Assembly: GCF_003019035.1 (NCBI RefSeq)
Contig: NZ_CP027447.1
Source of the DNA: Escherichia coli
GTDB taxonomy: Bacteria; Pseudomonadota; Gammaproteobacteria; Enterobacterales; Enterobacteriaceae
Length of the DNA stretch: 64,000 nt
Strand: one strand, 5' to 3'
The translations under genes were made by a program, and so were the position numbers. Of this stretch, positions 51,302 through 53,560 are shown piece by piece. Position 1 is the first letter of the stretch; each line of letters begins with the position of its first letter. Under the pieces are notes generated by a model that saw nothing but the letters and a program-made list of their open reading frames with translations, was not told where the DNA came from and made no database searches.

Positions 51302-51330
51302 GAAGTGCTCCATCGCTAGTTGAAGCACAT

Positions 51331-51365
51331 TGCCGGATGCGACGCTTGCCGCGTCTTATCCGGCC
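51331..51365. repeat. REP palindromic repeat
   Basis: TGCCGGATGCGACGCTTGCCGCGTCTTATCCGGCC between convergent yfgD and hda. Confidence 0.8.
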
Positions 51366-51406: not shown

Positions 51407-52108
51407 CTACAACTTCAGAATTTCTTTCACAAACGGAATGGTCAGCTTACGTTGCGCGGTAATCGACGCACGATCCAACTGATCCAGCGTCATAAATAAC
51501 GTGCGCATTTCTCTGTCGAGCCGCTTCAGCAAGAAACGCCCCACATCTTCCGGCAGTTCAAAACCACGCAAACGAGCGCGTAACTGTAGCGCCTGCAACT
51601 TATCTTCATCAGAAAGTGGCTGCAATTTGTAGATCTGCCCCCAGTCGAGACGCGACGCGAGATCCGGTAATCCCAGATTCAACTGCCGCGGTGGACGATC
51701 GCCGGTGATCAACAACCGTGTTTTACCCGATTCCAGAATTCGATTGTAGAGATCGAAAATCGCCATCTCCCACAACTCATCGCCTGCAATACACTCAATG
51801 TTGTCGATACAGACCAGCGACAAATGCTCCATACCGTCGAGCACTTCCGGAACAAACCAGGTGCGTTTATCCAGCGGGACATAACCCACCGCATCGCCAC
51901 GCTGTGACAATTCCGCGCAAGCCGCGTGCAGCAGATGGCTGCGCCCCGCGCCTTCGCGTGCCCAGAGATAGATGTAACCGCTATGTTCCTGACGCAGCAC
52001 GTTTTGCAGCGCGGCCAGTAAAGAGGAGTTATCCCCCGGCCAGAAACTTGCAAAGGTTTCGTCGTCAGGAAGATAAAGTGGCAAAGAGAGCTGTGCCGGT
52101 GTGTTCAG
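51407..52108 (-). CDS. hda: DnaA-inactivating (RIDA) protein Hda
   Basis: AAA+ DnaA-like ORF; coordinates give the 233-aa form from a CUG codon (LNTPAQ...), as recalled for K-12; the ORF track extends to 52153 (248 aa). Confidence 0.85.
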
Positions 52109-52202
52109 AGATACCTCAACCAGGATTTCACAAAATCGCGAGAAGTTTACCACAGAATCCCATGATGTTTGAACCGGGCAGCAACACTGCCCGGTCGGTA
52201 CA

Positions 52203-53492
52203 TTATTTGTCTGTTATATCCGCGTCTTCTGCGTCCAGCACCACTTCTTCAGGGCGCAGCATACTAATCAGTTTGAAGATCAAACTTAAGCCGATACCGA
52301 CGATGGTCGCCAGCGCCATACCTTTCAGCTCCGCCGCGCCAATGTTTACCTTCGCGCCACTGACGCCGATGATCAAAATAACGGAAGTCAGGATCAGGTT
52401 CTGTGCTTTGTTGTAATCCACTTTCGATTCGATCAACACACGAATACCGGAAGCACCGATGACACCGTAAAGCAGCAGCGAAACGCCGCCCATCACCGGC
52501 AATGGAATCATCTGGATAGCAGCAGCCAGTTTACCGACGCAGGAAAGCAGGATAGCGAAAATCGCCGCCCCGCCGATAACCCAGGTACTGTAAACACGGG
52601 TGATCGCCATCACGCCAATGTTTTCTCCGTAAGTGGTGTTTGGCGTGGAGCCAAAGAAGCCGGAGATCACGGTCGACAAGCCGTTAGCAAACATCGAACG
52701 GTGCAGACCTGGATCGCGCAGCAGATCTTTTTTGACGATATTAGCCGTTACCACCAGGTGCCCTACGTGTTCGGCAATAACCACTAACGCCGCTGGCAGA
52801 ATAGTCAGAATGGCAAACCACTCGAAGCGCGGCGTATAGAGAGTTGGCAGCGCAAACCAGTGAGCATTAATAATCGGCGTGGTATCGACAATTCCCATTG
52901 CGAAAGAGAGCGCGTAGCCCACCAGCACGCCAATTAAAATCGGGATAATTGCCAGGAAACCACGAAACAGCACGGAACCTAAAACCGTGACCGCCAGGGT
53001 GGTAATAGAGATGATGATGGTTTTGGAGTCTGGCGTTTGCCCTTCAGCCGGGAGTAAACCTGCCATACCGGCAGCTACGCCCGCCAGCTCCAGACCGATG
53101 ACGGCAACGATTGCGCCCATTGCCGCAGGTGGAAACAGCACGTCCAGCCAGCCGGTCCCCGCTTTCTTCACGATAAAAGAAACCAGGCAGAACAGCACGC
53201 CGCACATAATAAAGCCGCCCAGCGCGACTTCATACCCTAACGGCAACAGTAACAATACCGGTGAAATAAAGGCAAAGCTGGAACCAAGATAAGCCGGGAT
53301 TTTCCCTTTACAGATGAAGAGATACAGCAGCGTTCCTATACCGTTAAATAACAGTACAGTCGCCGGGTTAATATGAAATAAGACGGGCACCAGGACGGTT
53401 GCACCAAACATAGCGAACAAATGTTGCAAACTAAGCGGGATTGTCTGTAAAAGTGGCGGTCTTTCACTCACCCCGATAGCACGGCGCGTCAT
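52203..53492 (-). CDS. uraA: Uracil:proton symporter UraA
   Basis: 429 aa from [16 protein letters not shown]; NCS2 family. Confidence 0.94.
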
Positions 53493-53532
53493 AGTATTAT
53501 CCTCTGTATTATGTGTTATAGGCGCTTTACTC

Positions 53533-53560
53533 AAAAAAAAGCCGACTCTTAAAGTCGGCT
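53533..53560 (-). terminator. Intercistronic hairpin with U-tract between upp and uraA (terminator/attenuator-like)
   Basis: Minus strand reads AGCCGACTTTAAGAGTCGGC followed by TTTTTTTT; lies between the upp stop and the uraA start. Confidence 0.55.

Follow-up and report, generated by a model that had tools for sequence, protein, structure and literature searches.

Translation of Escherichia coli hda very probably starts at a conserved CTG codon, with the upstream GTG lying in the probable hda promoter

Where does translation of hda begin? The question arises in a window of 64,000 nucleotides (the whole stretch of DNA that was analysed) from Escherichia coli contig NZ_CP027447.1, assembly GCF_003019035.1. 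The longest version of the hda open reading frame (ORF) in this window, at 51407..52153 on the minus strand, encodes 248 aa from a GTG start, and codon 16 of this ORF is a CTG, the L that precedes NTPAQ. The original prediction placed the start at this CUG, giving a protein of 233 aa, and expected automated annotation to misplace it. Its coordinates, both lengths and the codon identities agreed with the ORF listing and the sequence. The literature, the curated annotation, the orthologues and a transcription start site (TSS) located 3' of the GTG all support the CUG start. It can be said with high confidence that hda translation starts at this CTG with a GAGGT Shine-Dalgarno sequence, and that the 248-aa ORF is accidental. 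The coordinates of the features discussed below are collected in Table 1.

Table 1. Features at and around the hda start, in window coordinates
Feature	Position	Strand	Basis or remark
uraA (uracil permease), upstream neighbour	52203..53492	-	RefSeq annotation mapped to the window
Hairpin ACCGGGCAG-TGTTG-CTGCCCGGT	52173..52195	-	follows the uraA stop; terminator/attenuator of the upp-uraA transcript
Candidate weak -35, TTCAAA	52168..52173	-	18 nt upstream of the -10 hexamer; putative, read from the sequence; only TTC conserved across species
GTG, former start of the 248-aa ORF	52151..52153	-	almost certainly not the start; overlaps the TG of the extended -10
Extended -10, TG-n-TAAACT	52144..52152	-	hexamer 52149..52144, TG 52152..52151; putative promoter role, from position and conservation
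5' untranslated leader of the hda-specific mRNA	52109..52137	-	29 nt; from the published TSS at 52137
Shine-Dalgarno sequence GAGGT	52113..52117	-	4 nt upstream of the CTG; 98-100% conserved at -9..-5 in 80 species
hda initiation codon CTG	52106..52108	-	very probable; EcoGene 3.0, in its statement on the hda start; CTG in 80/80 and 6/6 loci
hda coding sequence	51407..52108	-	233 codons plus stop; RefSeq annotation coordinates match exactly
Beta-clamp-binding motif QLSLPL, codons 6-11	52076..52093	-	seen in the translation; matches Kim 2017

The gene in the window is hda, which encodes the DnaA inactivator of the RIDA pathway. The 233-aa product scored 474.8 bits against the NCBIfam Hda equivalog NF005982 (cut-off 268), a profile of 235 positions of which positions 3-235 align to the 233-aa E. 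coli form. It scored 281.7 bits against TIGR03420 (cut-off 194.8), a profile that begins at Q6, and Pfam PF00308 and PF22688 (Hda_lid) are on record for the protein cluster. Residues 1-233 are identical to residues 21-253 of chain E in PDB 5x06, the Hda-clamp crystal, in which the Hda chain consists of a 20-residue tag followed by MNTPAQ. The Hda-family motif QL[S/P]LPL was found as QLSLPL at residues 6-11 of this form; the crystal paper numbers the residues 1-233 and gives the clamp-binding motif as 6-QLSLPL-11 (Kim 2017). The AAA+ Box VII arginine finger was also found in the translation, where residue 153 is R within ASRLDW, and Arg153 is the residue named as the arginine finger in the same study (Kim 2017). 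Hda is an AAA+ protein that, on the DNA-loaded beta clamp, triggers ATP hydrolysis by DnaA (regulatory inactivation of DnaA, RIDA), and this clamp-dependent stimulation of DnaA-ATP hydrolysis is established in the literature for the identical K-12 protein.

In the window, hda is preceded on the same strand by uraA, while arsC/yfgD and bepA lie on the other strand. E. coli K-12 hda (b2496, NP_416991.2, UniProt HDA_ECOLI) shares with the window the 233-aa protein (WP_001307333.1), the gene order upp-uraA-hda / arsC(yfgD)-bepA and identical nucleotides around the start, and no relevant difference from K-12 hda was found. The window strain itself differs from K-12; a 911-nt query matched a chicken isolate at 100% and most genomes at 95-99%. 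All but one of 5426 complete E. coli genomes (5425) contain the hda locus; the hda region found no match in the remaining genome, and a single match lay on a plasmid record. In strain 2013C-4282 (NZ_CP027579.1), hda is annotated as a frameshifted pseudogene of 701 nt. Such cases of absence or pseudogene annotation could reflect assembly error or genuine loss of hda with suppressors. A REP-like palindromic element was also observed in the arsC-hda spacer (51302..51365); on either strand it matches Rfam naRNA4 weakly, at 32 and 27 bits, which is below the gathering score of 59.5. In many E. coli genomes the alignment covers just 96% of the 911-nt query, and the 37 arsC-proximal bases that are missing overlap this element. 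Because many genomes lose those 37 bases, the arsC-hda spacer may be variable at the REP-like element.

The CTG start of hda is not new, having been known since 2008 and being part of the reference annotation; what the species comparison and the transcript data contribute is confirmation and a few annotation-level details. In its statement on the hda start, EcoGene 3.0 gives CTG and credits Su'etsugu et al. (2008, J Biol Chem 283:36118), and it is through this second-hand citation that the experimental basis is known here. Chodavarapu et al. termed the upstream GUG "originally annotated". In the K-12 MG1655 annotation, hda is complement(2618075..2618776), 702 nt, protein NP_416991.2, with a CTG start. 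Eight further RefSeq E. coli records, chosen to span the range of identities, agree, so that nine of nine place the hda start at this CTG; seven of the eight carry WP_001307333.1 (702 nt) and one is flagged as a frameshifted pseudogene. A literature search for ribosome-profiling papers that mention hda together with CTG found none.

The alignment with Hda orthologues proposed as a check in the original prediction was carried out using one genome per species, covering 80 Enterobacteriaceae loci with 92-100% protein identity. The codon aligned to the E. coli start was CTG in all 80 species representatives, and also in six of six loci from other Enterobacterales families (Yersinia, Hafnia, Erwinia, Dickeya, Photorhabdus and the P0118 locus). 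Among these 86 loci the start was never TTG, GTG or ATG, while ordinary Leu codons of the same gene turn over freely. Within the 80 Enterobacteriaceae genes, only 2 of 162 conserved non-Met/Trp columns were invariant at the nucleotide level. Because none of the 30 conserved internal Leu columns keeps a single codon, the CTG does not behave as an ordinary Leu codon, and its identity is kept beyond what the amino acid needs. The Shine-Dalgarno sequence stands at a functional spacing from the CUG, and GAGGT was also found in all six loci from the other families.

The sequences flanking this conserved core behave differently. Upstream of about -12 the species differ, 1-nt indels are seen and in-frame stops come as near as 5-7 codons, and 46 of the 80 species have no in-frame ATG, GTG or TTG between the upstream stop and the CTG. 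Downstream, the first canonical start in the 80 species is codon 9 or later, inside or past the clamp motif, and initiation there would truncate or delete the motif. Outside Enterobacterales, comparison was made with Caulobacter HdaA and with the Shewanella amazonensis Hda (PDB 3bos). Four outgroup Hda genes (50-64% identity) were sampled, which start at GTG, GTG, TTG and ATG, none at CTG, and which have different neighbours. The CTG start thus appears to be confined to Enterobacterales.

The uraA-hda spacer contains four conserved blocks, namely the hairpin, TGTGnTAAACT, CGnTTTT and GAGGT-N4-CTG. Of the 86 loci, 85 have the pattern TGn followed by TA[N][A/G][N]T at a distance of 33-39 nt from the CTG. 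When TGnTAAACT is read as an extended -10, transcription is predicted to start at about window position 52137. An operon consisting of hda alone (b2496) is recorded in SMRT-Cappable-seq Supplementary Data 2, its TSS being at 2618805 on the reverse strand. This K-12 position corresponds to window 52137, a G and the 7th nucleotide after the TAAACT hexamer, the K-12 sequence being identical and the offset checked. A DnaA box was considered as another reading of the TGTGnTAAA block (the reverse complement of TTATNCACA) and judged less likely, since two core positions mismatch. The extended -10 is preferred because of these two mismatches and because the TSS lies at the canonical distance from TAAACT.

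In the RpoD genomic SELEX paper the upp-uraA promoter is the only one given for this locus, and a scan of 51950..52450 against sigma-70 and terminator consensus sequences called no promoter and no terminator. The scan missed the hda promoter because 8 of 12 hexamer matches plus the extended -10 TG fall below its threshold, and it missed the hairpin because the hairpin has no T-run. Both elements were recovered from conservation and from the published TSS and transcription termination site (TTS) data. A structural switch at the Shine-Dalgarno sequence and CTG was rejected, since RNA folding gave no significant structure around them (z = -1.6 for the intergenic region and z = +1.1 for the true leader); an Rfam search of the leader gave no match at E <= 1. 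Two out-of-frame mini-ORFs were observed in the E. coli leader on the minus strand: a TTG-TGA "start-stop" at 52128..52133, and an 8-codon ORF from GTG at 52105..52131, with a TGA that shares bases with the CTG start (cTGA). In the 85 loci for which a leader was predicted, there are 17 start-stop pairs. These mini-ORFs are probably due to chance.

The transcript data bear directly on the upstream GTG. This codon lies 14-16 nt upstream of the hda TSS, and as it is 5' of that site it is missing from the hda-specific mRNA. No in-frame ATG, GTG or TTG was found within the 29-nt E. coli leader, which leaves the hda-specific mRNA of the window with no usable canonical in-frame start upstream of the CTG. 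A longer transcript must also be considered. The hairpin after the uraA stop has a perfect stem of at least 6 bp in 78 of 86 loci, with stem sequences that differ through compensating changes. SMRT-Cappable-seq Supplementary Data 1 gives a TTS at 2618838 for the upp-uraA transcript from the TSS at 2620909, classed as a "novel TTS", which corresponds to window 52170, 3 nt past the hairpin. In the same data set, 95 of 260 reads continue past the hairpin in one of the two conditions, against 8 of 214 reads in the second, and a transcript spanning upp-uraA-hda is included. Because such read-through transcripts exist, the GTG is present on some mRNAs.

It could be proposed from this that both starts are used, with the CTG as the main start and a minor extended isoform made from read-through transcripts, and with a 241-aa protein made in Salmonella and Citrobacter from an ATG at -8. 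The substantial read-through in one of the two conditions would fit such an arrangement, as would the in-frame ATG 8 codons upstream of the CTG in Salmonella and Citrobacter, which lies in the predicted leader and for which a 241-aa Salmonella model exists. However, the equivalent GTG at -8 in the window is out of frame, the GTG at -15 lacks a ribosome-binding site, the species comparison shows conservation of neither extension, and an extended isoform is reported in none of the literature retrieved. The use of both starts is therefore considered very unlikely.

Initiation at the GTG at 52153 itself, with the 248-aa form as the native protein as originally annotated, is less probable still, and hardly credible. 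It gives the longest ORF, it is carried on the read-through transcripts, and the 248-aa sequence is found on at least 1000 contigs and serves as the cluster representative among ab initio gene calls. Against it, no Shine-Dalgarno sequence precedes the GTG, which falls within the extended -10. The 15-codon extension is not conserved as protein, and the frame from GTG to CTG is broken in most other species by 1-nt indels or by stops, the latter at -5 to -15. The 248-aa form would also move the clamp motif to residue 21, a position that is very rare among 137 full-length representatives of the wider Hda family, in which the motif usually starts at residue 2-8 and most often at 4. Both the literature and the curated annotation reject the GTG. 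Finally, a start at the first canonical downstream codon, the TTG at codon 9, which would give a 225-aa protein (MPLYLPDD...) like the models for Serratia symbiotica and [Pantoea] beijingensis, can be dismissed as next to impossible, since this codon, though a canonical start, has no suitably placed Shine-Dalgarno sequence, behaves like an ordinary Leu codon (TTG in 42 of 80 species, CTG in 37 and TTA in 1), would cost half of the clamp-binding motif, and is contradicted by the conservation of residues 1-8 and by their presence in the crystal structure.

The expectation that automated annotation would misplace the start was borne out in part. It did not hold for the nine RefSeq E. coli records checked, all of which are right, but over-extended forms do circulate elsewhere. 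The exact 248-aa sequence, with GenBank and UniRef entries, is the output of Logan/ENA ab initio gene calls, and the Hda models of relatives have 225, 235, 238, 241 and 243 aa. The 235-aa models of Yersinia, Hafnia, Erwinia and Dickeya start at the GTG of the GAGGTG Shine-Dalgarno sequence (locus position ~401-410), two codons upstream of the conserved CTG, and the conserved "EV" of over-extended protein models is GAGGT read in frame. Judged from the sequences, the 235-aa models and the 235-position NF005982 profile are probably two codons too long, the profile apparently having been modelled on 235-aa forms. Of the 85 predicted leaders, 30 hold an in-frame canonical codon, those of Salmonella and Citrobacter among them. 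In ten Salmonella and Citrobacter loci this is an ATG 24 nt upstream of the CTG without a Shine-Dalgarno sequence. It lies 6 nt from the predicted 5' end of the leader, matches the 241-aa Salmonella models, and would make a near-leaderless start. The neighbouring uraA is another case of a longest ORF overshooting the accepted start: its longest ORF (52203..53534, minus strand) encodes 443 aa from TTG, whereas RefSeq gives 429 aa from an ATG at 53492. The pattern GAGGT-N4-CTG provides a simple rule to correct Enterobacterales hda models, a practical value limited to annotation hygiene.

With initiation at the CTG as the preferred reading, the arrangement of the locus is best explained as follows. 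Most hda transcription would come from the gene's own promoter, a weak one of the extended -10 type, and the GAGGT would direct initiation at the CTG, decoded as fMet. The product would be the 233-aa protein, with the clamp-binding motif close to its N-terminus at residues 6-11. The GTG at 52153 would then be part of the extended -10 (TGTGgTAAACT) of this promoter, and the 248-aa ORF would be an accident of a frame that stays open backwards through the leader into the promoter. Such a GTG would appear only on upp-uraA-hda read-through transcripts, where no ribosome-binding site precedes it.

Other E. coli genes also start at unusual codons. Both infC and pcnB start at AUU, and the AUU start of infC underlies the autoregulation of IF3. 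With these two genes and yfjD, hda shares a near-cognate start codon combined with a normal Shine-Dalgarno sequence and weak initiation. We know of no regulatory loop for hda like that of infC. The yfjD gene has a CTG start like hda, and EcoGene reports it as the second confirmed CTG start. In E. coli reporters, Hecht et al. found initiation from CUG to be about 1-2% of that from AUG. That CTG is kept so strictly throughout the order suggests that a weak start is selected for, which would hold Hda at a low dosage. That the CTG is actively maintained as a weak start across Enterobacterales, fixing a low Hda dose that is possibly sensitive to IF3 or translation initiation, is put forward tentatively and may well prove wrong.

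For E. coli itself, the start question was settled in 2008 and the reference annotations are right, so nothing changes there. The position of the N-terminus nevertheless has consequences, since the clamp-binding motif must be near it, and tagged or extended Hda constructs are used in vitro. Because Hda sets the speed at which DnaA is inactivated, its precise N-terminus and its dose are both important. If the CTG is indeed maintained as a weak start, it would couple RIDA capacity to growth physiology.
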